Positions 23,393 through 50,663 of a stretch of DNA of 58,283 nt are shown in pieces (position 1 is the stretch's first letter; each line of letters opens with the position of its first letter). Source of the DNA: Nitrospinota bacterium. Its GTDB lineage: Bacteria; UBA8248. Location of the stretch: contig JASLZZ010000050.1 in assembly GCA_030754595.1 (NCBI GenBank), forward strand, positions 1 to 58,283. The letters are read 5' to 3'. Below the pieces are notes generated by a model. That model saw only the letters and a list, made by a program, of their open reading frames with translations, ran no database searches and was not told where the DNA came from. The position numbers and the translations under genes are program-made.

Positions 23393-23785
23393 ATTTCACA
23401 GAGGTATGTAAAAAACGAAATTCAAAAAACAAGAATCCTGCCCTTCGATAATTTCATTCATTCTCGCCGGCCCGGTTCTTCATGCGGTAGTGGCGCCGGG
23501 TGTGGAGCGAGACGGCTCCGGGATGGGGCCGCTCAGCGGCGGGTGGAGGCCGTGCTCCCTCACCCCAGCCCTCTCCCGGCGTGAGAGGTTTTTTTTCCCG
23601 GGGTCCGGCGAGCGGCGGAAAGTGGAAAGGGCTGTAGCCCTACACCACGGCAAACGCCTCCAAAAGGCGGGAAAGTTCGCGTGAAAGCGGATCTTTGGCA
23701 GACCCGGCGGAAGGTGGATCGAAATTTTCGCCCTGGGCCCTCGCGGTGGGCGCCGGCGGAATATTCCTACTGAGGAGGAGGCGGC

Positions 23786-24538
23786 ATGGAACTCGGCGGC
23801 AAGGTCGCGCTCATCACGGGCGGGGCGCAGGGCATCGGGGCGGCGTCGGCGCGGCTCTTCGCGAAGGAAGGGGCCGCCGTGGCGGTGGCCGATCTCGATG
23901 CGGAGCGTCTCGGCGCCCTCGAGCGGGAAATCGGGGCGGCCGGGGGCCGGATGATGGGCGTCCGGGCGGACTGCGGGAAGGCGGGCGACATCGAGCGGAT
24001 GATCGACGAGGTGGCGGCGGCCTTCGGCGGGCTCGATATCCTCGTCGCGGGGGCGATCTTCCGGCCGACGAAGCCGCTGATGGAGGTGACCGAGGCCGAC
24101 CTCGACCGGGCCCTCGAAGTGAACGTCAAGGGGTATTTCCTGAGCGTCCAGCGGGCGGTGCCCGAGTTCAAGAAACGCGGCGGGGGCAAGGTGGTCCTCA
24201 TATCGAGCACCTTCGGTTTCGCCGGGGCCCCGAATTTCTCGGTTTACTGCACCTGCAAGGGCGCGGTGGTGAACATGGCGCGGGCGCTGACCTACGAGCT
24301 GGCGGGCGAGGGCATCAACGTAAATGCGGTGGCGCCGGGCCCCATCATGACGGAGGGGATGCGGGAACTCATCGCCGCCGACCCCGCCATCGAGAGCCAC
24401 CGGACGGCGTGCATGCCGCTTCCCCGGTTCGGAACCCCGGAGGAGGTGGCCGAGGCGATCCTCTTCCTCGCCTCCGGGCGCTCGGACTACGTCCACGGGC
24501 ACAATCTCGTTGTGGACGGAGGATATCTGGCGGTCTGA
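23786..24538 (+). CDS. Short-chain dehydrogenase/reductase
   Basis: TGGAQGIG, YCTCK (YxxxK), NAVAPG and VDGG motifs; strong RBS. Confidence 0.93.
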   Translation: MELGGKVALITGGAQGIGAASARLFAKEGAAVAVADLDAERLGALEREIGAAGGRMMGVRADCGKAGDIERMIDEVAAAFGGLDILVAGAIFRPTKPLMEVTEADLDRALEVNVKGYFLSVQRAVPEFKKRGGGKVVLISSTFGFAGAPNFSVYCTCKGAVVNMARALTYELAGEGINVNAVAPGPIMTEGMRELIAADPAIESHRTACMPLPRFGTPEEVAEAILFLASGRSDYVHGHNLVVDGGYLAV

Positions 24539-24663
24539 GGGCTGCGGCCGGCGGCCCCCGCTCCCCCCCTCGATCTCTCCTCTCTATTCGCTTATATTGT
24601 TCGGATAGATTTCGCATTTCGAAGGGAGACTTATCCCGATTCTTTTCCTGGGGGATTTTAGTG

Positions 24664-24939
24664 ATGACAAAAGCACGGAATATTCTTCTGGTACCCCTCC
24701 TGGCTGTTTTCGCAGCGGGTTGCGCGGAGTCCCTGACCACATGGTCGAAGCCGGGGGCGAACATGGGCCAGGCGACGGCTGTGCTGAAGGAGTGCTCCGA
24801 AACGGCCGGGATGCTATACGACGAAAAGGGCCTGGGGGACAAACCCCTTGCCCAGGTATCGCATACCAGCTACTCGATTTGGGCTGGAGACCCCTTCGAG
24901 ACTTGCATGGCGGGCAAGGGGTTTAAGAAGAACAATTAG
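24664..24939 (+). CDS. Small lipoprotein, unknown function
   Basis: Lipobox LAVFAAGC, WSKPG, and two further Cys (ECS, TCMAGKGF). Confidence 0.7.
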   Translation: MTKARNILLVPLLAVFAAGCAESLTTWSKPGANMGQATAVLKECSETAGMLYDEKGLGDKPLAQVSHTSYSIWAGDPFETCMAGKGFKKNN

Positions 24940-24971
24940 ACAGGGCCGCCTACCGCCCGGCGGGCGGGCCT

Positions 24972-25255
24972 TTCGCCTCACCGATATCGCCGGCCGGTAC
25001 GGAGGCGAGGAGTTTTGCGTCATCTTGCCCGAGTCGGATATCTCCTCGGCACGGCGCATCGCCCAGAGAATCCACACGAATATCGCCGAAAATTCCTTCG
25101 CCAGCCCCGGCGGAGGGGAGTTCCGCGTCACGTGCAGCATCGGCGTCGCCGAGTACATCCGGAAATCGGAGGATACCCAAGCTCTTCTCGAGCGCGCCGA
25201 CCGGGCCCTCTACCAGGCCAAAGAAGATGGGCGGAACCGCATCAGCTTCTCCTGA
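24972..25255 (+). pseudogene. C-terminal fragment of a GGDEF diguanylate cyclase
   Basis: RLTDIAGRYGGEEF...VTCSIGVA...ADRALYQAKEDGRN; the N-terminal half of the domain and a start codon are absent. Confidence 0.75.
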
Positions 25256-25271
25256 AGCGCACCCCTGAGAC

Positions 25272-26111
25272 CTACAGGAGCAACTCAGTTTTCGAGGCGC
25301 ACCTGAATCCGAAGTAACGGTGGCCGCCGTCGAGGCGGCCAGGATAGACTGGCACCCTCGAGGTCGAGCTCAACTCCTCGCCCACGCTCGAGGTGTTCCC
25401 TCCGCGGGAGACGCGGGCGTCGTGAAAATCGAGGTTCTCGCGCCCGTCCTTGGGAAGATAGGGATAGGGCCTGTAGAGCGAGCGCGTCCACTCCCACACC
25501 TGACCCACCATGTCGAGCGCTCCGTAGGGGCTCGCTCCCCTGGGATACTGGCCGACCGGTGCGGCGTCGTTCCTGAAGCTGCCGAAGAAGGCGAGGTCTT
25601 TCGCGGGTTTTTGGTTCCCCCAGGGATAGAGGCGTCCGTCGGTTCCGCGCGCCGCCTTCTCCCACTCGGCCTCGCTCGGAAGGCGCTTTCCGCGCCACTT
25701 GCAGTAGGCCACCGCACCCTGCCATGCCATTTCGCCAGCCGGAAAATTATCGAATTCCTTCGGAACGATCCACTTTCCGTCCAACAGGAGGATGCGGTTG
25801 TCCTCGTCTCCGACGTCGAGATAGACCTCGCCCTTGGGGCCAGCGGGGCCCTTGGCGCGGATAAACTCGGCGTACCGGGCCCAGGTGACGAGATTCTTGT
25901 CGATATAGAAGGCGGGCAAATGAACGGTGTGGCCCGGCTTCTCATCGGGCGGCCCTCCGCTTCGCCCCATGGTGAACGGTCCGGCCGGGATGAGGACCAT
26001 ACCGGCGAATTTCCCCTTACCCTCGACGATGGCCGCGCCGGCCAACGGGGCGGTGGCTTGAAACGCCCACGCCGCGAGAAGGGAGGCGGCGATGATTCGT
26101 GCCATTCTCAC
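25272..26111 (-). CDS. FGE-sulfatase (SUMF1/EgtB/PvdO) domain secreted protein
   Basis: Signal peptide, MVLIPAGPFTMG, RLPSEAEWEKAARG, MVGQVWEW and GFRCA motifs. Confidence 0.9.
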   Translation of the reverse strand: MRMARIIAASLLAAWAFQATAPLAGAAIVEGKGKFAGMVLIPAGPFTMGRSGGPPDEKPGHTVHLPAFYIDKNLVTWARYAEFIRAKGPAGPKGEVYLDVGDEDNRILLLDGKWIVPKEFDNFPAGEMAWQGAVAYCKWRGKRLPSEAEWEKAARGTDGRLYPWGNQKPAKDLAFFGSFRNDAAPVGQYPRGASPYGALDMVGQVWEWTRSLYRPYPYLPKDGRENLDFHDARVSRGGNTSSVGEELSSTSRVPVYPGRLDGGHRYFGFRCASKTELLL

Positions 26112-26115
26112 CTCC

Positions 26116-26568
26116 TCAGTCCACCTTCACCGATCCGCCCAGCTTGCGCCGATAGTCCCACCACTTCCATCTGGCCGGAAAGACGGTGATGCGGACGCGA
26201 ATCTTTCGGGCGACGGGGCCGTCCTTATAGTTCGCCCACATGTCGGGGCCAAAGAACTGGTCAATAACGCTCCTGAGCCCTTCGTGGTCCGTTCCCATCT
26301 CCCCGGAAACCTCGGCTGCACCCTCGACGATCACCGCGCGGAAGGGAAACTCATCGTCGTCGATGCAGAGGGAGACGGCGGGGTTATGCTTCAGATTCTT
26401 CACCGTGACCGAATCCGAGCCCGTACTGATGAAAAAAGTCCCCGCGCCCGAGTCGAACTTGTAGCAAAGGGGAACGGAATGGGGCAAACCGCCAGCGCTG
26501 ACGGTCGATATCCGGGCCATCCTCGGCTCATTCAGGAACTCGTCCATCTCCCTCGGTCGCTCGGCCAT
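26116..26568 (-). CDS. Pyridoxamine 5'-phosphate oxidase-family (split-barrel, F420/FMN-binding) protein
   Basis: ARISTV..G.PHSVP, KNLKHNPAVSLCID, WKWWDY; RBS before ATG 26568. Confidence 0.85.
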   Translation of the reverse strand: MAERPREMDEFLNEPRMARISTVSAGGLPHSVPLCYKFDSGAGTFFISTGSDSVTVKNLKHNPAVSLCIDDDEFPFRAVIVEGAAEVSGEMGTDHEGLRSVIDQFFGPDMWANYKDGPVARKIRVRITVFPARWKWWDYRRKLGGSVKVD

Positions 26569-26698
26569 GAAACGTCCTCCTCTGGTTGCCCCCCCCCGTG
26601 GATTTTCCCGAAAATCCACGGCGCGGCGGGTCTGAATGTCGTTCTCTTTAGTGTATCATTAAAAGAGACTGCCAGAACCGATTTCAAAGGAAACGCTG

Positions 26699-27730
26699 AT
26701 GGATGAATCCCCCGATCCTTTCGAGTATTTTTTCGGCCTCCCCTGGTCGGACGGCCTTCCCGTCGTCACCCCGACCCCGGATCGGATCGCGTGGATGTTG
26801 GGTGGAACGGTCCGCTCGCCGGAGGAGTTGATCGGGCCCGTCCCCCCGGCCTTCAACGAGGCCACCGTCGAGACGGTCGCCCAGCACGCCCTCATGGCGG
26901 GCTGCTGCCCGGATTACTTGCCCACCCTCCTTGGGGTGGTCGAGGCCGTCCTTACCGAGGAGTTCAACATGAACGGTCTTCAGGGGACGATGGGCCCCGG
27001 CGGCCCCATGATCATCCTGAACGGCCCCTACGCCAAGAAGATCGGCGTCCAAGCGGGCTCGGGTTGTTTTGGGCCCGGCTTCCGGGCGAACGCCACCATC
27101 GGCCGCGCCCTGCGCCTCATCCTGATGAACCTGGGGGGCGGCCTCCCCGGCGTCTCGGACATGAGCTGTTTCGGCAGCCCGGTGAAATTCACCTTCTGCG
27201 TCCGGGAGAACGAGGAGATGAACCCTTGGCCCTCTCTCGCCGCCGACCTGGGCTTCGATGCGGGCGAGGATGTCGTTACCGTCTATCCGGCCGAGGGGCC
27301 CCGCCAAGCGTTCGACGACTCGAGCGCCGAGCCGGAGGGCCTCCTCACCACCATCTCGACGGTGATGAGCTCGATGGGGATGTCCAACTCCTATATGCGC
27401 CAGCACATGGTCGTCGCCCTGAGCCCGGACCATGCCGCCCTTCTCGAGGGCGCCGGCCTCTCGCGCGGCGATGTGAAGCGGATTTTATTCGAGAAGGCGC
27501 GCCTCCCGCTGGGGCTGATGAAGCGGGGCGGCCGCTTCCGCGGGGCAGCCAGTGCGGAATGGCCCGGCTGGGTGGATTTGAATGACGATGAGAGCATGGT
27601 CCCGATGATTCACGATCCGGACGACATCCTACTCATCGTTGCGGGCGGCAGCCCCGGGCCCAATACCATGGTGATCCCCGGCTGGAACAACTCCAGCCAC
27701 ACGACGAGCATCCGCTACCGGACGGACTGA
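26699..27730 (+). CDS. Conserved uncharacterised protein (WSDGLPVVTPT family)
   Basis: 343 aa ORF with WSDGLPVVTPT, ALMAGC.P.YLP, NGP, GPGFRANATIGRALRL and ENEE.NPW motifs. Confidence 0.75.
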   Translation: MDESPDPFEYFFGLPWSDGLPVVTPTPDRIAWMLGGTVRSPEELIGPVPPAFNEATVETVAQHALMAGCCPDYLPTLLGVVEAVLTEEFNMNGLQGTMGPGGPMIILNGPYAKKIGVQAGSGCFGPGFRANATIGRALRLILMNLGGGLPGVSDMSCFGSPVKFTFCVRENEEMNPWPSLAADLGFDAGEDVVTVYPAEGPRQAFDDSSAEPEGLLTTISTVMSSMGMSNSYMRQHMVVALSPDHAALLEGAGLSRGDVKRILFEKARLPLGLMKRGGRFRGAASAEWPGWVDLNDDESMVPMIHDPDDILLIVAGGSPGPNTMVIPGWNNSSHTTSIRYRTD

Positions 27731-27750
27731 TTTTTTAAAGGCGATTACCG

Positions 27751-28098
27751 ATGGCTGACGAGAGGAACGATTTTCCGGCCTGCGAGTTCACTCAAAAGGG
27801 ATTCCTCGGGGAGCGGCGGTGCCCGCATACCGGCGAATTCAAGGAGCTTGGCGGCCGACGCCTCTGCAACTTTCACTGGGACTCCGAGGAGGCCGGCGAA
27901 AGGCGCACCAAGCTCGGGCTCTTCCAGCCCCGGTTCGCCGAGCTCGTCTTTCGCTTCAGATAGGACCCCGAGAAACCGGGCGTGGATTTGAGCGGCCTCC
28001 GCCTCGACTGCCGGGGATTCGTTTTTCCGGAGGGCTTCGCCTACCTGAGCGGGCGGGCGATCCCTCCGGCGGATTTTCACTACGCGCGATTCGGCCGC
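27751..28098 (+). pseudogene. Truncated gene (Cys/His N-terminus, pentapeptide-like start) with internal TAG at 27961
   Basis: ORFs 27751..27963 and 27982.. share a frame: C..C..LCNFH, then DCRGFVFP...ADFHYARF, which breaks off against the convergent OsmC-like remnant. Confidence 0.45.
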
Positions 28099-28506
28099 GG
28101 CGAATCGCTGTCGACGGTGAAATGGGTCCTCATCGCGGTGGCCCCGGAGCGGATATCCCCCGCAGGACCGAACCCTTCACGAACCAGTCGAAAACAACCC
28201 GGCACTTCGCTTTTGAGAACGAAATAATCATCATGTGCGCGTACCGCGCGAGCTGGGTCAGCAGTCAGAAACCCACCCCCATGGCGATATAGGTGAGCGA
28301 CTGCGGGTAGCGATCCTCCCCCCTCCCCGAGACGGGGGGGGCTCGTCGCAGTAGACCTCATGAATCCGGGCGCGTCCGCCCTTGAGTTGGTGCTAGCCCT
28401 CGATGGTTTCGGTGACGGCCTCCATCGTCAGGGCGTAGCCGCCCGGAGGAAGGTCCGTCCGCTCCAGATTGCTCTTCTCATCCCAGGGATTAATGGGCTT
28501 TTCCAC
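28080..28506 (-). pseudogene. Degraded OsmC-like selenoprotein gene (TGA at 28267-28265)
   Basis: AGGAGG RBS and GTG at 28506. Reconstructed reading YCDEPPRLG.EDRYPQSLTYIAMGVGF-U-LLTQLARYAHMM...CRV...GSVLRG.IRSG...THFTVDSDSP needs a TAG at 28395, frameshifts in G/C runs and has lost its C-terminus. Confidence 0.72.
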
Positions 28507-28560
28507 GCAACGATCCTCCTCAGGCAGCTTCGGCTAAATACGATGAGTGGGTGAAATGGC

Positions 28561-30915
28561 TTAAGGCTGTGATAAGTCCGGCGCTGTCACCGCTGTCGCA
28601 TCCTCGGCCGCCGGGGCGCTGGCCGGCTCCCGGAACACCGTAATCTCGGGCGGCTCATCCACATAGCGCTCGATATCGACCAAAACGCTTTGGGCGGCGG
28701 GGCCCTGCCCGAGTTTCGATGTCCCCTTGTCCAGGGTGAGTGCGTTGGGGTTGCCGTGCCTGTCAAGGCCGCCCTGGGTGAGCGGGTCGTACCAGGCGCC
28801 CGTCGCCAACTGAATAACGCCTGGGCGAATCCGATCGGTGATGATAGCTCCGGCCAGCGCCGCCCCCCGGTCGTTGAAAATCCGGACGATATCGCCCTCC
28901 AAAATTCCCCGCCGGGCGGCGTCCGCCGGATGGATTCTAACCGGTTCCCTGCCACGTATCTTGCTCTCGCGGCTCACCCCGGCGGGGTCCATTTGGCTGT
29001 GAAGACGGGTGACGGGCTGATTCGAGATCATGTGCAGCGGATGACGCGCCGCCCCCTCGCCGCCAAGCCACTCGGCCGGGTCGAGCCAGGCGGGGTGGCC
29101 CGGACAGTCGTCGTATCCGAAACCATCGATGGTCTGGGAGAAAATTTCGATCTTCCCGGAGGGTGTGCTCAGCGCCCGGCCGGCCGGGTCGGCCCGAAAG
29201 TCGGCGAGCATGACATAGGGCTCATCTGGGGGAGGGATCTCCACATGACCTTTCTCCCAAAAGTCATTGAAATCAGGGTAGTTAACCAGCCGCTCCGCCG
29301 CCTGCTCGCGGGCTGTGTCGTAGAGGTGGCGGATCCACTCCATCTCGCCGCGCCCCCCGGTAAAGGTTTCCCGTGTGCCGAGGCGCTCGGCGAGGTCCGC
29401 GAATATGTCGAAATCGTTTCGCGCCTCGCCGACGGGCTCGATGGATTTCTTCATCGCCAGGATAAAGCGGTCCATTGCGCTCGCGCCGAGGTCGTTGCGC
29501 TCGACCGTGGTGGTCGCCGGGAGAACGATGTCGGCGTGCCGGGCGGTGGAGGTCCACCAGGGCTCGTGGACGATGACGGTCTCGGGCTTTTGCCAGGCGC
29601 GCACGAGACGGTTGAGGTCCTGGTGGTGGTGGAACGGGTTCCCCCCGCACCAGTAGACGAGGCGGATGTCGGGATAAATCCGCTTCTCCCCGTCGAAGTG
29701 GTACGCCGCTCCGGGAGAGAGGAGCATATCGGCGATCCGCGCCACCGGGATAAAGCTGTCCAGTGGATTATCCCCGGGGGACAGGGCGGGCGTGGGGATC
29801 CGCTTCCGGGGGTTCCCGTTGCCGGCCATGGAACCGTATCCAAAACCGAAGCCCCCGCCTGGAAGGCCGATCTGGCCGAGCATGGCGGCGAGTGTGGCCG
29901 TCATCCAGAAGGGTTGTTCGCCGTGGTCACCCCGCTGAAGCGACCAGGCCGTCAGGATCATCGTGCGCCCCGCGGCCATCCTCCGGGCCAGCTCCCGTAT
30001 CTTAACGACCTCAATTTCGGTGACCCCGGCCGCCCAGGCGGCGTCTTTTGGACGTCCGTCCGAGCGGCCCATCAGGTAGTCCTCGAATTTCGCATACCCC
30101 TCGCAATAACGGCCGAGAAAGCCCTGGTCGTGGAGGCCTTCGGTCACCAGCGTATGGGCGAGCCCGAGCATGAGAGCGGTGTCGGTGTTCGGCCGGGGGC
30201 GGAGCCACTCGGCGGCGAGGAAATCGGAAGCGTCGTCCCGAAGGGGGGCGATGTTGACGAACTCGATCCCTTTTTCCTTCGCCCGGCGCAGCCACACCTC
30301 GGCCGTGTGCTCGCCGGGGCCGCCTCCGGCGACCTGCATGTTCTTGAGGGGAATCCCGCCGAACATGACGATGAGGCTTGAACTCTCGACGAGACCGTCC
30401 CAGGTCGAGCCGCCGTTGATGTGGCCCGATTTTCCCAAGACATGGGGCAGGATGGCCGAGCCTGCGGCGTGGCTGTAAGTGTGTTTTTGGTTGGTGAAGC
30501 CGCCTATGGTGTTCATGAACCGATGGAGCTGGGTCTTGGCGTGATGGAATCGCCCGGCGCTCGCCCAGCCGTAGGAGCCGGCGAAGATAGCTTCGTTGCC
30601 GTGCGCCTCCTTGACGCGGCGGACCTCGGCGGCGACGAGATCGAGGGCCTTTTCCCACGATACGGGGACGAAAGGCTCCGCGCCCCGCCGCCCCTCGCCG
30701 GGACCCTTCTCCAGCCAACCCGCGCGGATCATCGGGCGGCTCACCCGGCTCTCGGCATAAACCGCCTCGGGGATCGAGTCCAGGATCGGCGAGGGGTGAG
30801 GGTCCTTCTCGAAGGGCTCGACGGCCTCGAGGCGGCCGCCGCGCACCTCGGCCCGGAATGCCCCCCAATGGGAGTTGTGGTGATGAAATTCCCGGGATTT
30901 GGATATTGGGGCCAA
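28561..30915 (-). CDS. Molybdopterin oxidoreductase, BisC/TorA/DMSO-reductase family (cytoplasmic)
   Basis: SHWGAF, GSYGWASAGRFHHA, TYS Mo-ligand Ser, QRGDHGEQ, GGNPFHHHQD, RLHSQ and GAWYDP motifs; no Tat signal. Confidence 0.93.
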   Translation of the reverse strand: MAPISKSREFHHHNSHWGAFRAEVRGGRLEAVEPFEKDPHPSPILDSIPEAVYAESRVSRPMIRAGWLEKGPGEGRRGAEPFVPVSWEKALDLVAAEVRRVKEAHGNEAIFAGSYGWASAGRFHHAKTQLHRFMNTIGGFTNQKHTYSHAAGSAILPHVLGKSGHINGGSTWDGLVESSSLIVMFGGIPLKNMQVAGGGPGEHTAEVWLRRAKEKGIEFVNIAPLRDDASDFLAAEWLRPRPNTDTALMLGLAHTLVTEGLHDQGFLGRYCEGYAKFEDYLMGRSDGRPKDAAWAAGVTEIEVVKIRELARRMAAGRTMILTAWSLQRGDHGEQPFWMTATLAAMLGQIGLPGGGFGFGYGSMAGNGNPRKRIPTPALSPGDNPLDSFIPVARIADMLLSPGAAYHFDGEKRIYPDIRLVYWCGGNPFHHHQDLNRLVRAWQKPETVIVHEPWWTSTARHADIVLPATTTVERNDLGASAMDRFILAMKKSIEPVGEARNDFDIFADLAERLGTRETFTGGRGEMEWIRHLYDTAREQAAERLVNYPDFNDFWEKGHVEIPPPDEPYVMLADFRADPAGRALSTPSGKIEIFSQTIDGFGYDDCPGHPAWLDPAEWLGGEGAARHPLHMISNQPVTRLHSQMDPAGVSRESKIRGREPVRIHPADAARRGILEGDIVRIFNDRGAALAGAIITDRIRPGVIQLATGAWYDPLTQGGLDRHGNPNALTLDKGTSKLGQGPAAQSVLVDIERYVDEPPEITVFREPASAPAAEDATAVTAPDLSQP

Positions 30916-31081
30916 ACCTTTCTCCTATCTCCGCCGAACGGCTGTGGGCCGCGAGATCTTCCGGTGTCAACACCGGGGACCAGCTGCGTCAAAAAAGTCC
31001 GGTGGATTATATCATCATCGCCGGCGTCGCTCACCAACCTCACCGGCGCCGTGCGTGCTTAATCGCCCACACCTTGCTTGC

Positions 31082-31747
31082 TCACCCACCTGGCGGCGCC
31101 TGGGGGAACTCGCCGGGCCAGCGCTCGGCCATTTGGACGATATAGGCCCTCAAGTCATCGGGGTCCTGGCGGCGGCTGTCGCTGATGCTCTCCACCCGGC
31201 CGTCGTCCTCGAGCGGAATCCGCAGGGCGTCCTGGAAGCGGTTGCGCATGTTGAAATAGGTGATGACCATCGTGAGCTCAACGACCTCGGCGGGTGAATA
31301 TTGGCGGTGCACCTCCTCGAACACATCGTCGCGCGCCTTGGCCGTGTTGAGCGTCACATGCTCGGCCCAGAGGATCGCCGCCCTCTCGCGGCCGTCAAAA
31401 AGGGGCGAGTCCATATAGGCGTCCGAGGCGATGGTTTCAATCTGCTCGTTCGTGATTCCCGCCGATTGACCAAGGGCGGTGTTGTGCGCGAGTCAGTAGG
31501 CGCACCCGTTCAGGTGGCTCGTCTTGATGACGGCCATCTCCTTGATCTTCGTCGGCAGGGTGGTTCCCAGACCCTCGCGCATCAGCGCGACCGTCAGCGG
31601 GAGGATCATCTTGGCCACATAGGGCTGGTGGGCCATCACCCTGAAGGAGTTCGCCACCCTCCCCAGGAGCCGGGTCACGCCCTCGAAAAGGGCCGTCGCC
31701 TCTCCCCTGCCCTCCTCGGGCGGAATCGGGCGGATTCTCGCCTTCAT
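31082..31747 (-). CDS. AhpD-like (CMD family) protein, probable selenoprotein with CxxU (TGA at 31495-31493 = U85)
   Basis: ORFs 31493..31747 and 31082..31414 are in frame: TSHLNGCAY-U-LAHNTALG...ERAAILWAEHVT...EVVELT...YFNMRNRF. Confidence 0.92.
31459..31479 (-). promoter_or_regulatory. Candidate SECIS hairpin for the AhpD-like gene
   Basis: CCGCC-C-TTG-GT-CAA-TC-GGCGG starts 14 nt after the UGA, with a GU-containing apex. Confidence 0.6.
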
Positions 31748-31769
31748 GTCAGCCTCCTTTCGGCCGGGC

Positions 31770-32165
31770 CTATTTGCTCTCCTCGGCCTGCTCGTCGTGA
31801 ATGCGCTTGAGGGCGTAGAGGCCCTCCATGAGGACCGGGGCGCCGCCGCCGATGCTGGCTACCTCGAAGGCCTCGAGGACTTCCTCCATCGTCGCGCCCA
31901 GGCGCAGCGCCTTCTTCGAGTGGGTGTAAACCTCATGCTTCATGCCCTTGAAGGCGAGGAGTCCGATTTCGATGAGTTCGCGCGTCTTGGGGTCGAGGTG
32001 GCGCGTCTCCTCCTTGAAAAACCCCCAGTGCATCTGGCAGTAAACCTCGAAATAATCCGGGTCGAGTTCGGCCCCGAAGCCGAGCACGTCATATACGAAG
32101 CCTCTGTCCTTATGAATTCTATCGGTGATGCGTTTAACTTTTTCCTCGCGGGTTTCCGGCGCCAT
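31770..32165 (-). CDS. Carboxymuconolactone decarboxylase (CMD/AhpD) family protein
   Basis: LDPKTRELIEIG...HSKKALRLGATMEEVLE motif. Confidence 0.85.
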   Translation of the reverse strand: MAPETREEKVKRITDRIHKDRGFVYDVLGFGAELDPDYFEVYCQMHWGFFKEETRHLDPKTRELIEIGLLAFKGMKHEVYTHSKKALRLGATMEEVLEAFEVASIGGGAPVLMEGLYALKRIHDEQAEESK

Positions 32166-32258
32166 TTTCTTTCCTCCAGGTATGAGAATATTACTAGAAC
32201 AAGATAAAATCCGGCCGCCCGTTAACGCGCGCGGCCAATCGATAGCATTTAGTTCGAA

Positions 32259-32654
32259 TCATGCCGAGGCCTTTCTCTCCTCTAGGACGGCGTTGAGGCA
32301 TTTCACGCCCATCATCAGGGAGGGACCCCCCGCAGGAAAAATCAGGCATTGGACGGTCTCGAAAATCTCATCCTCCGTCGCCCCCAACTCCAGCGCCTGC
32401 TGCATGTGATTCTTCACGTAGGTCGCGGTCTCCGTTGCCGGCAGGCGGACGCACAGGGCGGCGATGATGATGAGTTCCCTGAATTTTTCGGAAAGCGCCC
32501 CCTCGCGCTTGATGACGTGATTGTAGAGCGCGCTCTGGCGGACGTGATATTCAGGGTCCTTGTTGATGTAAAATTCCTGCTCGGGCAAAACCCAGCCGCG
32601 GTCCGCCCGAGTCTTCTCGATCAGTGCTTGTTTTTCCGTTTCATCCATCGGCAT
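32259..32654 (-). CDS. Carboxymuconolactone decarboxylase (CMD/AhpD) family protein
   Basis: LSEKFRELIIIA...HMQQALELGATEDEIFE motif; AAGGAGG RBS. Confidence 0.85.
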   Translation of the reverse strand: MPMDETEKQALIEKTRADRGWVLPEQEFYINKDPEYHVRQSALYNHVIKREGALSEKFRELIIIAALCVRLPATETATYVKNHMQQALELGATEDEIFETVQCLIFPAGGPSLMMGVKCLNAVLEERKASA

Positions 32655-32681
32655 ATCCTCCTTGATGAGACCGCCCCCGGC

Positions 32682-32724
32682 CAGCAAACGGGCGGAGGGA
32701 TATTCCCCCCCCCGCCCGTCTGCT
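32682..32724. terminator. Long intergenic hairpin after tctC (terminator or mRNA-stabilising stem)
   Basis: CAGCAAACGGGCGGAGGGA-TAT-TCCCCCCCCGCCCGTCTGCTG imperfect inverted repeat. Confidence 0.5.
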
Positions 32725-32762
32725 GAGCCGAAAACGCTTCCTTAAAGATGAAACATCTCGAT

Positions 32763-33749
32763 TTACTTTTTCTTTTTGAAACCCATGTCTTTGAAGACTT
32801 TGCCGTAAAAATCGATCTGGCCTAAATATGCTTCCTTAAGTTTGGGACCCGATAGCGGCGAAAGTTTCTCGCCGAATTTTTTGACCAGCTTTTTCAAGGT
32901 CTTGCTCTTGGAGGCCTTGTGGAGGGCTGTTTTGAGAATTTCGATCCGGTCCTTGGGCGTGCCCTTGGGTGCGATGAATACGCGCCATGATTTATATTCA
33001 TAGTTCACCCCAAGTTCATAGAAGGTGGGATGATTGGGAAACTCTGGCATGCGGTTTTTGGACGCCGTGGCGATCAGGGTAAGATCGCCGCTCTTGACCC
33101 GGCCCAGGGTGCCGCCCGTGGTGACGTTTGCCCAACCTAAATCCGTGTGGCCACCATACATGGCCTGCCAGGCCTTGCCGCCGCCCCGGAAGGGAACGTG
33201 TTTGAATTTGACGTTCGCGGCCCGCATGATCTGTATGATACCCAGATGGCTTGAGCCCCAGGCACCGTTCGAGGAGATCGAAATCTTGCCGGGGCGTTTT
33301 TTGGCGTCGTCGATCAGGTCCTTATAAGTCTTCCAGGGAGTCGTGCTTTTTGTCACGAGCATAAACGGGGAACCATTGACCTGGAAAACCGGAATAAAAT
33401 CTGTTTTGGGATCAAAACCCATATTGCGAGCGTGGGGCGCGATGGCGAAGTGCGAGCCCGAGCCGAGGGCGATGGTGTAGCCGTCGGGTTTTGAGCGCTT
33501 GAGGGCGGTCATGCCGATCTTGCCGCCGGCGCCGCCCCGCACCGTGCACAGAAATGGCTGTCCCAGGTATTCGTGAATCACACTCGCCACCGCCCGGCAA
33601 TGCATGTCGTGCGAACCGCCCGCACCGGTGGCCAAAATCACCTTGATGGGCTTAATCGGATATTTCGCCGCCCCGGCCTGGGGCGCGGCCATGAGCACAA
33701 TCGCCGCGGCCATGGTGAACATCCACAGTAATACTTTTCTTGTAAGCAT
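32763..33749 (-). CDS. Tripartite tricarboxylate transporter substrate-binding protein (TctC/Bug)
   Basis: Signal peptide, YPIKPI, AGGSHD, GAGG, PDGYT and HVPFRGG motifs. Confidence 0.93.
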   Translation of the reverse strand: MLTRKVLLWMFTMAAAIVLMAAPQAGAAKYPIKPIKVILATGAGGSHDMHCRAVASVIHEYLGQPFLCTVRGGAGGKIGMTALKRSKPDGYTIALGSGSHFAIAPHARNMGFDPKTDFIPVFQVNGSPFMLVTKSTTPWKTYKDLIDDAKKRPGKISISSNGAWGSSHLGIIQIMRAANVKFKHVPFRGGGKAWQAMYGGHTDLGWANVTTGGTLGRVKSGDLTLIATASKNRMPEFPNHPTFYELGVNYEYKSWRVFIAPKGTPKDRIEILKTALHKASKSKTLKKLVKKFGEKLSPLSGPKLKEAYLGQIDFYGKVFKDMGFKKKK

Positions 33750-33780
33750 GTTGTCCTCCTAACGAGTCAACGAATGCGGC

Positions 33781-35265
33781 TTAGTTGTCGGCCCAGGGCC
33801 GCTTCCAAACCGCCATTCCCAAAAGCGCTACACTAAGGAAAATAAAAAAGGCCGAAATCGGCCGGGTCAAAAAGACGAAAAAGTCCCCGTCAGAGAGTAC
33901 CAGTGCCTGCTTCATCGACTCCTCCGCCGAGGCGGTGAGAATGTAGGCGATGACAAGCGGCGCAAGCGGAAAATTCAACTTGCGAAGACCGTATCCGACG
34001 AGGCCGAAGAACAGGGCGAGCTTCACGTCCTCGATGCTATTCTGGTAGATGAAGCCGCCGACCACGCAAAAGAGCAGAATAATCGGCACGAGTAACGACT
34101 GGCGAACGGTGACGATTCGGGCAAACAGGGGGGTCAGAAGCTTGCCCTGAAGCAACATGATGGGATTTCCGAGCAGGAGCAACGTGAAGATCCCGTACAT
34201 GGTCGCGGCATGCTCTTGAAAAAGATTAGGCCCCGGTCTCAAGCCCTGGGCCATGAACGCGCCCATCAGAATGGCGGCCGAAGCGCTGCCCGGGATGCCG
34301 AAAGCCAGCGTGGGAATCAGGTCCGCCCCCGCCACCGCGCTGTTGGCCGCCTCGGCGGCGGCGATGCCCTCGTAGCTTCCCTTGCCGAATTCCTCGGGCC
34401 GCTTGGCCCCGCGCTTGGCTAGCGCGTAGCTGATGAATGTGGCGATGGCAGCGCCGGTGCCCGGAATGGCGCCGACGGCAGTGCCGATGAAAGAGGAGCG
34501 CATGATGGTCCATTTTACGTTGACGAGTTCCTTTAAATCGAGCGACCTGCCCCCCTTGAGGTGGGCCGTTTCGGGTGGAGTGGAAAGCTCGGAGAGTTTC
34601 TTTTCGGACTGGATCAGGACCTCGCTGACGGCGAACAGGCCGATGAGCATGGGAACGGTTCCCACACCATCCATGATGTTACCGATGCCGAAGGTGAAGC
34701 GCTCCGCGCCCGAGATGATGTCCTGGCCGATGAGGCCAATGAGGATGCCGATGAGCATCGAGAGCAAGCCCTTCAAAACCGAAGAACCCGTCACGGCGGA
34801 TATAATCGTCAGCCCCATCACCATAAGGGCGAAGAACTCGGTCGGCCCGAAGAGCAGCGCCACGGCGGCAAGCGGAAAGGCCGCTACGATAAGAACGATG
34901 TCGCTAAATGAATCGCCCAACGTCGATGAGTAAAGCGCCATCTGGATGGCACTTTTAGCCTCGCCCTTTTGCGCCAGGGGATAGCCGTCGAAAGAGGTGG
35001 CCGCGGCAGCAGCCGTGCCCGGCGTGTTAATCAGGACGGACGGAATAGAGCCTCCGAAAAGGGCGCCTTTGTGGATCCCTAACAAGAACGGGATGCCATT
35101 TATCGGCGTCATGAAAAACGAGAAAGGAACCAGGACGGCAATCGCCATCACACTCGTCAGACCCGGTATCGCGCCCACGGTAATTCCCGCGAAAACGCCC
35201 AGCGACACCATGACCAGCGCCTGGAGCGTGATCGCCGCCCATATGGCATTAAAAACCTGCTCCAC
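33781..35265 (-). CDS. Tripartite tricarboxylate transporter large permease (TctA)
   Basis: GAIPGL, GGSIPSVLINTPGT, DGYPLA, AAEAANSA and GIPGS motifs. Confidence 0.95.
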   Translation of the reverse strand: MEQVFNAIWAAITLQALVMVSLGVFAGITVGAIPGLTSVMAIAVLVPFSFFMTPINGIPFLLGIHKGALFGGSIPSVLINTPGTAAAAATSFDGYPLAQKGEAKSAIQMALYSSTLGDSFSDIVLIVAAFPLAAVALLFGPTEFFALMVMGLTIISAVTGSSVLKGLLSMLIGILIGLIGQDIISGAERFTFGIGNIMDGVGTVPMLIGLFAVSEVLIQSEKKLSELSTPPETAHLKGGRSLDLKELVNVKWTIMRSSFIGTAVGAIPGTGAAIATFISYALAKRGAKRPEEFGKGSYEGIAAAEAANSAVAGADLIPTLAFGIPGSASAAILMGAFMAQGLRPGPNLFQEHAATMYGIFTLLLLGNPIMLLQGKLLTPLFARIVTVRQSLLVPIILLFCVVGGFIYQNSIEDVKLALFFGLVGYGLRKLNFPLAPLVIAYILTASAEESMKQALVLSDGDFFVFLTRPISAFFIFLSVALLGMAVWKRPWADN

Positions 35266-35766
35266 TTAAGACGCTCCTACAAACAATTCGCCCTCTGGCA
35301 AGATCACCTTGAAGGAAAACCAGAAAAACCGCTCGATTATAAGCGGCGTCAACAGCGACACAGGTGCGACGAAGCGCCAATCCCGGGTGCCAAAGTATAT
35401 GATGAGAATGGCCAGAAAAAACGGCGAGGTCAGGTGGAACCCAAACCACTCAAGGGCGTATACATAAACCACGGCAAGGATGAAAACGAAAAAAGCCTGA
35501 AAGGAAGACCGCCCACTCGAGCCCGGCATGAGTTCAGGCGTTCCCCTCTCCCGGAGCGCGCTCACCACTAGCAGCACGCTGACCAGCCCGAAAATGCCGA
35601 TTGCTATCTGCGGGAAGGTCTCGGGCCGGAAAATTCGGCCCGCGAACTCACTCTCTGAGGTCGATAAAATGATCTGGGTGGGGACCAGATAGAAATAATA
35701 AACGAGGCTGAAGACCACGAAAAGGACGCCGACGAGGAAATTCGATCTGTTCATCTGGGTGCACAT
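35266..35766 (-). CDS. Tripartite tricarboxylate transporter small permease (TctB)
   Basis: Four TM segments, P.TFP and F.V.LPEG motifs; abuts tctA. Confidence 0.88.
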   Translation of the reverse strand: MCTQMNRSNFLVGVLFVVFSLVYYFYLVPTQIILSTSESEFAGRIFRPETFPQIAIGIFGLVSVLLVVSALRERGTPELMPGSSGRSSFQAFFVFILAVVYVYALEWFGFHLTSPFFLAILIIYFGTRDWRFVAPVSLLTPLIIERFFWFSFKVILPEGELFVGAS

Positions 35767-36209
35767 CCCGGGCGCAATAGGCCCTGTTTAGTGATTCCGT
35801 GGACCGTAGAAATCCACCTGTTTAAAAAGATTTGGCCGGTCAAGTTTGTCTTTGACCAAAAAAAGATACCATCCCTTCGGACGATATCTCAAGCAGTGGA
35901 AAATGAGTGGCGAAATCGGGAAGAACGAATCCTGAAAACGGCCTCTCCCCTTCCCCGAAGGGGTTTGGATACACGGCAGGCGGTTTGAACACACATTAAG
36001 TTTTGGATAGAAGGATGGGAAATTACATTTTTTGGAAAAACCCGAGCAAAAACCGAAAAGATGGAACCGAAAACGCCCGATCTTTTTGAAAATCGCCCAG
36101 CCGTAATAAACGGCCGAAAACTCATTCCCGTCTGTTTATTACAGACGAAACCTCATGCAACCCATGACAATAAGAATTTTTTCTCATCTGGTTTGCAATT
36201 CGATGTCGG

Positions 36210-49973: not shown

Positions 49974-50663
49974 GTCGCGGAACCTCGCCCGCTCCTCCCC
50001 CCGCTCCTGGGCCCGGCGCGCGGGGGTATCGGCCTGCTCCCGTTGGTCCGCATTTCCAGGGACTTCGGTGCATTTGGATGGACTTTTACCGCGAGACGAT
50101 TTTGACCCATTCGGCTTGCCGGCACGTCTCATGATCTCTCTGTTTCCCGGACAATTTTGCCTTTTCATTTTCACCTCAAACGCAATTTTTTTACGCCACG
50201 AGATTCATAATCGTTCCGCGCACCTGATCCAGCTCGGGATCGGAGGCCTCTCCCTGCCCGGACGGAGCAGGCACGAAGGTCGTCTCGGTTTTGAATTCGA
50301 GGTGAAATTTGCCCTGGAATTTAACGGCTGCGGCGACAACGTCTAACTGAGGGATACTTGATTCGACGATCATAAAAAAACTCCTCTTTCGTTCGGCAGG
50401 TCAACCATCAGTTCTATCCGGGCGAAACTGATTTGTGCCTTTGCGCCCCCGCCTCGCGGCGGGTTTGCCTTTATCGCGAAAGGACTAGGTCATATGGGTT
50501 TGGACGATAAAATTATCTCCAAGAGATAATATGGGGCGCAGGCAAACATTTTTTGTTAGATTGCTGTTAGGTTACGGTTAGATTTACCGCCAGAAAATTA
50601 AAACAAAGCGAAAATTGCTCAATACCGCCTCCCCGGGAGGCAGATCATCGGAGGATTTTCAGC

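Follow-up and report, generated by a model that had tools for sequence, protein, structure and literature searches.

A genus-specific row of importer, selenoprotein and molybdoenzyme genes in Nitrospinota probably comprises three adjacent units

Introduction

Tripartite tricarboxylate transporters (TTT; TctCBA), the BisC family of molybdenum-dependent S- and N-oxide reductases, and the AhpD-like and OsmC-like selenoproteins are the closest described relatives of a row of eight genes that lies on one contig of a Nitrospinota bacterium (GenBank JASLZZ010000050.1, assembly GCA_030754595.1; 58,283 nucleotides (nt), the whole of which was analysed and is called the window here). The row reads tctB, tctA, tctC, two genes for proteins of the carboxymuconolactone decarboxylase (CMD) fold, an AhpD-like gene with a selenocysteine (Sec) codon, bisC, and the remnant of an osmC gene. 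The BisC family includes the E. coli and R. sphaeroides BisC proteins, with DorA (1EU1), TorA (1TMO) and an MtsZ-type enzyme (7L5I) among its solved relatives, and E. coli BisC is reported to require a small thiol protein as reductant. The AhpD-like 1 and OsmC-like selenoprotein families have been known since 2005; the former, with its CxxU motif, is listed in the Sargasso Sea and Global Ocean Sampling (GOS) surveys (PMC1088965, PMC2398784), and metagenome-assembled genomes (MAGs) listed under UBA8248 and labelled Nitrospinota/Nitrospinaceae have been reported to carry 48–54 selenoprotein genes each, which ranks them with the most selenoprotein-rich bacteria (PMC13326102).

The window resembles each of these systems and departs from each of them. 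Its transporter has the complete three-subunit set of a TTT, in the order B-A-C and as a cassette with signs of exchange between genera. Its molybdoenzyme, like members of the BisC family, is full-length, aligns at the Ser and Tyr/Trp positions and carries no twin-arginine (Tat) leader, but in this genus the gene is flanked by two selenoprotein genes. Its AhpD-like protein has the CMD/AhpD core domain, the CxxU motif and the selenocysteine insertion sequence (SECIS) directly past the UGA that characterize AhpD-like 1, and differs in a 40-residue C-terminal extension and in scores below the specific NCBIfam cut-offs. AhpC/AhpD-type pairs and the Prx-like/AhpD-like pairs of GOS likewise set a CxxU AhpD-fold gene near a peroxidase-type selenoprotein gene, whereas in the window the pair is split by a molybdenum enzyme and a predicted promoter, and the peroxidase is of the OsmC type, not a peroxiredoxin. 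No AhpD-BisC-OsmC arrangement is named in the section of a review that deals with selenoprotein operons (PMC13188914), and a full-text literature search turned up no publication in which BisC is connected to TTT or CMD genes; the arrangement is undescribed, genus-specific and internally punctuated.

An earlier, sequence-based reading of this DNA (the original prediction) had proposed a single pathway, in which an oxidised organic acid is imported and then reduced through selenol relays. We favour a different reading, with a probability of about 0.6, namely that the row is a mosaic at the level of the genus, made up of three co-oriented units that adjoin one another, tctBAC, (CMD1)-CMD2-AhpD(Sec) and bisC(-osmC), and not one dedicated pathway. 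It is favoured because the genes are scattered outside the genus, the units are separated by a hairpin and a −10 box that are both conserved, tctBAC has a history of its own, CMD1 (found in two of five genomes) sits on an indel, and the osmC gene is dead; the same observations tell against the single pathway, which, so far as sequence comparison can judge, fails the refuting conditions that the original prediction had itself set. Where the transcription units end, which substrates are used and whether the proteins touch or exchange electrons are points that we infer below from these features.

Results

All eight genes are real. They are co-oriented on the minus strand, running from 35766 to about 28098, with intergenic gaps in row order of 0, 31, 108, 93, 22, 166 and 55 nt, the third of which would be 75 nt if a TTG start were taken for CMD1. 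Coordinates and profile matches bear out what had been predicted of this layout (eight co-oriented minus-strand genes, gaps of 0–166 nt) and of the families present, i.e. a TTT importer, CMD proteins without the cysteine motif, a CxxU AhpD-like protein, a cytoplasmic, serine-ligated BisC-type enzyme and a Sec-OsmC remnant.

The window covers a complete contig of the MAG that we call G000 (3.55 Mb, 138 contigs, 60% GC, estimated contamination 6.4%), one of five genomes of its genus (g1, G000 to G004), and the loci related to the row come from marine and groundwater MAGs of Nitrospinota/Nitrospinaceae type. The full order was found only in g1, where it is present in 5/5 genomes, and since collinearity there also takes in the opposite-strand flanks (the genes p289, p204 and p343, a pentapeptide-repeat gene, and GFO, MR_MLE and TAXI-TRAP genes), the shared order reflects shared ancestry. 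The gene order, whose conservation in relatives the original prediction had named as a check, is kept within the genus and broken outside it. Nine BisC loci from four other genera (g4, g6, g8 and g9) were compared by counting neighbours in the fetched flanks, and AhpD, CMD and OsmC genes were absent from those flanks at 9/9. Orthologues of the AhpD gene stand beside CMD1- or CMD2-type genes in four genera and beside bisC only in g1, the arrangements elsewhere being tctBAC-CMD1'-AhpD-CMD2 in g6, CMD2-AhpD-GFO-GFO in g9 and CMD1-X-AhpD in one g8 genome (G024). An OsmC(Sec) orthologue at least 87% identical adjoins bisC only in g1; outside the genus the best OsmC(Sec) copies are 59–67% identical and distant from bisC.

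A survey of CMD2 neighbourhoods with one genome per species gave the same picture of scatter, with 37 CMD2-related loci of which five have the AhpD gene, four the tct genes and three bisC. At 26 of the 37, orthologues at least 89% identical have none of the other window genes nearby; four of these 26 are annotated, and genes of the 2-oxoacid dehydrogenase E1 type lie downstream in 4/4 and an alpha/beta hydrolase gene upstream in 3/4. The usual setting of CMD2, as seen at loci L034–L061, is between an alpha/beta hydrolase gene and the E1 alpha and beta genes, opposite an SBP_bac_5 gene.

The importer consists of tctB (35266..35766, minus strand; small membrane subunit; PF07331, 49 bits, cut-off 29.1), tctA (33781..35265, minus strand; large permease subunit; PF01970, 478.7 bits), which follows it with a 0-nt gap, and tctC (32763..33749, minus strand; periplasmic substrate-binding protein; PF03401, 182.9 bits), and all three subunits exceed their Pfam cut-offs. 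TctC has an N-terminus that is hydrophobic by eye, and its best solved relatives are the Bug-family binding proteins 2DVZ and 2F5X (E about 1e-38); among its relatives in the PDB are BugD, BugE, Bug27 and binders of terephthalate and adipate type, and we take the Bug-type relatives to include amino-acid binders. Its history was gauged by third-position identity at conserved residues. Between G000 and G003 this is 78% for TctA and 80% for TctC, and 58% for CMD2, 58% for AhpD and 50% for BisC; when G009 is taken together with G003, tctA and tctC range over 78–83% and CMD2, AhpD, BisC and GFO over 50–62%. Relative to G001, the nearest relative, the order is reversed, with 72% for TctB, 79% for TctC and 85% for TctA against 90–94% in the flanks, and window-G001 identity across tctBAC is patchy (80–97%). 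The GC content at third codon positions (GC3) is 0.70–0.76 in tctBAC and 0.81–0.87 in its neighbours, AhpD and BisC spanning 0.81–0.86. Because the third-position identities and GC3 are discordant in this way, the importer cassette appears to have been exchanged independently of its neighbours, and by these measures its evolutionary history is separate from theirs. The synonymous-site identity of tctBAC to other genomes stays at about 72–85%, whether that of the flanks is 50–62% or 90–94%.

Upstream of tctB, the 443-nt spacer to the GFO/IDH/MocA gene (35767–36209) is conserved only with the nearest relative. This leader holds two terminator-like hairpins (36150–36126 and 35890–35863, the latter with a T-run), contigs from the RNA library X19 fall within it at 35917–36209, and neither an Rfam match, searched for up to E 1, nor a convincing open reading frame (ORF) was seen in it.

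Behind tctC lies a very stable, GC-rich hairpin (32676..32732, minus strand), which folding marks as a predicted terminator, attenuator or protector of the mRNA end. It has a 25-bp stem and a folding energy of −50.1 kcal/mol (z −7.67), 0/200 shuffles were equally stable, and the core of the stem is kept in 5/5 g1 genomes. Independent metagenome contigs from other studies (runs X9 and X11) both break at this hairpin. At its foot lies the 523-nt indel (32166–32688, relative to G001) that carries CMD1, a PcaC-like CMD-fold gene without CxxC (32259..32654, minus strand; PF02627, 40.4 bits). CMD1 was found in G000 and G003 and is missing from G001, G002 and G004; this variable accessory gene is dispensable, with 2/5 genomes of the genus carrying it. 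The TTG start at 32687 given for it in the original prediction is doubted because it is located in the 25-bp stem, and an ATG at 32654 or 32648 is more likely.

CMD2 (31770..32165, minus strand; PF02627, 52.3 bits) is likewise a PcaC-like CMD-fold gene without the cysteine motif; neither it nor CMD1 has a CxxC or CxxU at the position aligned with that of AhpD. At 31/37 related loci CMD2 shares 89–99% amino-acid identity, and its third-position identity is not above that of adjoining genes, so that a protein this similar without raised synonymous identity points to strong purifying selection. The structural relatives of CMD1 and CMD2 are of the gamma-carboxymuconolactone decarboxylase type, i.e. 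2Q0T (E 1.5e-14 and 1.1e-11, respectively) and 2AF7, and CMD2 scores 34.6 with the PcaC equivalog model TIGR02425, far under its cut-off of 155.7.

Downstream of CMD2, the AhpD-like 1 (COG2128/YciW-type) selenoprotein gene (31082..31747, minus strand) encodes 221 amino acids (aa) with the motif C82-A-Y-U85. The core domain is recognised by TIGR00778 (32.6, cut-off 27.8) and PF02627 (40 bits, cut-off 23), and scores with the subfamily models TIGR01926 (63.2 vs 81.8) and NF053654 (79.8 vs 310) fall short, which places the protein by its profile scores as a relative, not a member, of those subfamilies. The Sec codon, a TGA at 31495–31493, and a SECIS-like hairpin at 31479–31459 together occupy 31459..31495 (minus strand). 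At the aligned codon, 12/12 orthologous loci likewise have TGA; the hairpin begins 13 nt past the UGA, has GGUC in its apical loop, and, in an alignment of nine of the 12 orthologues (the near-duplicates L002, L008 and L010 being left out), shows compensatory double changes in four of 11 predicted pairs. Folded as a single sequence the element is not significant (z −1.31), and it is the alignment that is supportive. The G000 genome encodes tRNA-Sec (aragorn) as well as SelB (364.5 bits), SelA (551.8) and SelD (345), each exceeding its cut-off. Sec decoding is well supported, since the TGA is conserved, the hairpin covaries and the machinery is present, and the CxxU reading proposed earlier for this gene stands on the same evidence. 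The gene for SelD (G000:C16:24543-25505) has one in-frame TGA of its own.

The window copy is not the only AhpD(Sec) gene of its genome: tblastn gave nine further hits in G000 and an HMMER-scored search 13 matches. The other paralogues have no CMD, Tct or BisC neighbour, and the window gene is unique among them in its pairing with a CMD gene that lacks the cysteine motif. Both selenoprotein families show large expansions of paralogues in this bacterial family: across its 24 genomes we counted 3–21 AhpD-like matches per genome, and OsmC-like matches number 2–11 per genome; nearly every match listed has exactly one in-frame TGA, whereas two AhpD-like matches in G003 lack any stop and presumably carry Cys instead. 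In g8 a 245-aa protein with only a weak DUF4286 match (E 0.007) is encoded between the CMD1 orthologue (87% identical) and AhpD(Sec) (L021:8564-9301, plus strand).

The bisC gene (28561..30915, minus strand) encodes a 784-aa molybdopterin guanine dinucleotide S/N-oxide reductase that scores 1054.7 over the full length of TIGR00509 (cut-off 1017.55) and stays under the cut-offs of the TorA and DmsA models. Over its whole length it can be aligned with the dimethyl sulfoxide (DMSO) reductase 1EU1 (E 3.6e-233), query residue 15 meeting mature residue 12, and is only about 45–50% identical, by eye, to the solved periplasmic relatives. Only 14 residues precede the aligned start and a stop blocks extension of the ORF upstream, which leaves an N-terminus too short for a Tat signal, and the enzyme is predicted to be cytoplasmic, without a twin-arginine leader. 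Ser148, Tyr115 and Trp117 align with Ser147, Tyr114 and Trp116 of 1EU1, which we take to be the molybdenum ligand and the active-site Tyr/Trp pair typical of S-oxide-reducing members. The ligand serine had been assigned to the GSYGW motif; it is instead Ser148, in a TYS motif, and GSYGW contains the residues aligned with Tyr114 and Trp116.

In the spacer between AhpD and bisC, 91 nt before the bisC start, lies a predicted extended −10 promoter element, TGATATAAT (31006..31014, minus strand). The extended −10 consensus is TG.TATAAT, and the string TG.TATAATC is invariant in 5/5 g1 genomes, the spacer otherwise having a mean column identity of 60%; on this conservation the element may be the promoter of bisC. 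At the g8 loci L017 and L020, bisC is followed by a gene for a 463-aa protein with a RidA/L-PSP domain, and genes of amidase, amidohydrolase and 3-hydroxyisobutyrate-dehydrogenase type are near.

The last gene of the row is a pseudogene of an OsmC-related UxxT selenoprotein (28098..28505, minus strand), as comparison with intact g1 orthologues makes plain. In G001, G002 and G003 an intact gene for 175–180 aa, with G-F-U-L-L-T (UxxT) and a C-terminal Cys, stands 55 nt past bisC; the PF02566 cut-off is exceeded by the proteins of G001 and G003, and with NF041052 the former reaches 164.7 (cut-off 95). These intact sister copies are the ones that resemble the described OsmC-related (seleno)proteins (NF041052; the OsmC-like selenoprotein of PMC1088965), whereas the window copy, interrupted by a nonsense codon and by frameshifts and shortened at its 3' end by a deletion, has no intact reading frame and gave no Pfam match. 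Its defects are a TAG at 28395–28393, an extra C in a run of eight (28341–28334), a +1/−1 frameshift pair that scrambles the stretch of the former Sec codon (28267–28265), and the loss of its 3' end. The Sec-OsmC remnant named in the original prediction is thus recovered, with intact UxxT orthologues in G001–G003, and its beginning moves from 28361 to the GTV at 28505.

A deletion of about 1.65 kb took the 3' end of osmC together with most of a convergent gene for a pentapeptide-repeat membrane protein, and fused the two remnants. What is left of the latter is its N-terminal part (27751..28113, plus strand; tblastn), 85% identical to residues 1–123 of a 564-aa G001 protein that matches PF13576, with an in-frame TAG at 27961–27963 where the intact orthologue has Trp. 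The X9 contig spans 27500–29490 and differs at three bases, besides a single 1-nt gap within the C run, the X11 contig spans 27884–28340 with 0 differences, and both have the identical deletion junction and no alternative letter at the osmC TAG. Because independent contigs repeat the junction and the TAG, this is a genuine pseudogene, and the gene is dead in this population. Pyrrolysine was considered at the TAG codons of the two remnants and rejected, given that the orthologues have CAG (Gln) and TGG (Trp), that frameshifts and the deletion accompany them, and that aragorn found no tRNA-Pyl. G000 has a second OsmC(Sec) paralogue elsewhere (C131:5437-6783); this one is intact, and the gene after it is pentapeptide-repeat-like, so that the two echo the pair deleted in the window.

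Contigs from the RNA libraries X18 and X19 are sparse. They touch bisC, CMD2 and its upstream spacer, tctC and the tctB leader; among the seven pieces from each library none spans tctC-CMD1 or AhpD-bisC, strand and transcript ends not being shown by such contigs.

Discussion

Under the three-unit reading, tctBAC would be a binding-protein-dependent secondary importer of a carboxylate, carried as an exchangeable cassette that ends at the hairpin. (CMD1)-CMD2-AhpD(Sec), tightly coupled across the 22-nt gap and with a Shine-Dalgarno sequence of its own, would provide a selenol/thiol oxidoreductase that has a CMD-fold protein as its working partner, possibly in a joint assembly. The third unit, bisC(-osmC(Sec)), would probably be transcribed from its own extended −10 promoter, and the BisC enzyme, judged by its family, would reduce free S- or N-oxides, candidates being methionine sulfoxide, biotin sulfoxide, DMSO and trimethylamine N-oxide. 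In the sister genomes BisC and the Sec OsmC-type hydroperoxide reductase may form a pair for the repair of oxidative damage; in G000, where the OsmC partner has decayed, BisC would act alone.

Several observations weigh against drawing the units so sharply. The X18 contig at 32076–32271 crosses from CMD2 over the CMD1-CMD2 spacer, and the units may be less discrete than drawn; co-orientation and gaps of at most 166 nt make read-through transcription possible. The hairpin behind tctC has no clean U-tract in G000 and G003, and it may stabilise the mRNA instead of terminating transcription. The −10 site has no matching −35 hexamer and was omitted by a consensus scan, which listed two promoter-like sites (2.9 expected) and 18 terminator-like ones (11.9 expected); the hairpin behind tctC was missing from its list as well. 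BisC also adjoins a TTT in two genera, g1 and g4, the g4 arrangement being BisC-enoyl-CoA hydratase-tctBAC in the three g4 genomes fetched; with seven TctA loci in G000 and four in G007, we roughly estimate the chance of a BisC-TTT adjacency at 1–2% per genome, which hints at a real link. The g4 transporter is the orthologue of a sister paralogue on G000 contig C10, its TctC being 67% identical to the C10 copy and 48% identical to the window copy, and two independent juxtapositions are suggestive for BisC and TTT only, not for a selenol relay.

It is these juxtapositions, together with the small number of TctA loci per genome, the close spacing and common orientation of the genes and their order in 5/5 genomes of the genus, that speak for an integrated uptake-and-reduction system, in which TctBAC imports a carboxylate bearing an S- or N-oxide (e.g. 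methionine sulfoxide or biotin sulfoxide), BisC reduces it, and AhpD(Sec) and the ancestral OsmC(Sec) pass electrons or handle by-products. The reported need of E. coli BisC for a thiol protein and the presumed amino-acid-binding Bug relatives would fit such a system as well. We nevertheless consider it improbable: AhpD, CMD and OsmC are missing at all nine BisC loci of other genera, the intervening gene in g4 encodes an enoyl-CoA hydratase and no redox protein, and within the row the units are parted by the conserved hairpin and the −10 box and tctBAC is discordant in its history. OsmC(Sec) has become a pseudogene while bisC is intact, AhpD(Sec) is one of some 10–13 paralogues, and OsmC-type proteins are peroxidases and are not known as donors to molybdenum enzymes. 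A version in which BisC was recruited into a selenium-dependent module, with AhpD(Sec), stabilised by a CMD partner that lacks the cysteine motif, donating electrons or recycling the product as an imported S-oxide carboxylate is reduced, and OsmC serving as an optional peroxide accessory, strikes us as quite improbable. A single pathway would supply a function for AhpD-like 1, among the commonest marine selenoprotein families, and electron transfer from AhpD(Sec) to BisC would give the first defined protein reductant, long missing, of a BisC-type enzyme. What the evidence suggests instead is an ordinary mosaic, in which modules from known families adjoin one another in a marine lineage of Nitrospinota type that is rich in selenoproteins.

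A carboxylate-catabolism island is a further alternative, possible in our view yet doubtful. Here CMD1 and CMD2 would be true decarboxylases or isomerases acting on a substrate brought in by tctBAC or by the TAXI-TRAP system, the GFO/IDH/MocA dehydrogenase and the MR_MLE enzyme would process it, AhpD(Sec) would be an accessory redox partner, and BisC an unrelated neighbour. The MR_MLE, GFO and TAXI-TRAP genes that flank the row are in keeping with this, as are the structures that CMD1 and CMD2 resemble, the recurrence of GFO by CMD2 or AhpD in g1, in g9 (CMD2-AhpD-GFO-GFO) and at L062 (CMD2-GFO), and the usual context of CMD2 between an alpha/beta hydrolase and an E1 dehydrogenase, which we take to be comparable to PcaD-PcaC pairs. 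CMD2 nonetheless falls far below the PcaC cut-off and in most genomes has no TTT, GFO or AhpD neighbour, and the island offers no nameable substrate and leaves a decarboxylation role for the CxxU protein unexplained. That the row or the osmC pseudogene is an artefact of assembly, i.e. a chimera or a sequencing error, is extremely improbable. The MAG is in 138 contigs with 6.4% estimated contamination, and the length of the 8-C homopolymer varies (X9, like a minority of X11, has one base fewer at position 28334); against this, independent contigs span 27500–29490 and 29686–32718 with at most three base differences each and the same junction, the same order occurs in four other g1 genomes, and at least half of the sampled words of the row are present in 17 runs from 10 studies.

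For annotation, the three-unit reading leaves two points of use: gene callers shortened two selenoprotein genes here, of which one is a real pseudogene, and the repeated pairing of an AhpD(Sec) orthologue with a CMD-fold protein lacking the cysteine motif is an association that can be tested.

Additional observations

Searches against Rfam gave no match in the row at gathering thresholds; farther along the window, a c-di-GMP-I-GGC riboswitch aptamer was detected at 50391–50478 (minus strand; 61.3 bits, gathering score 59). On the other side of the row, the plus-strand genes at 23695–27730 (414, 100, 289, 204 and 343 aa) match no Pfam or NCBIfam family, and the 289-, 204- and 343-aa genes, which were used as queries, are conserved beside the row in G001 and G003.

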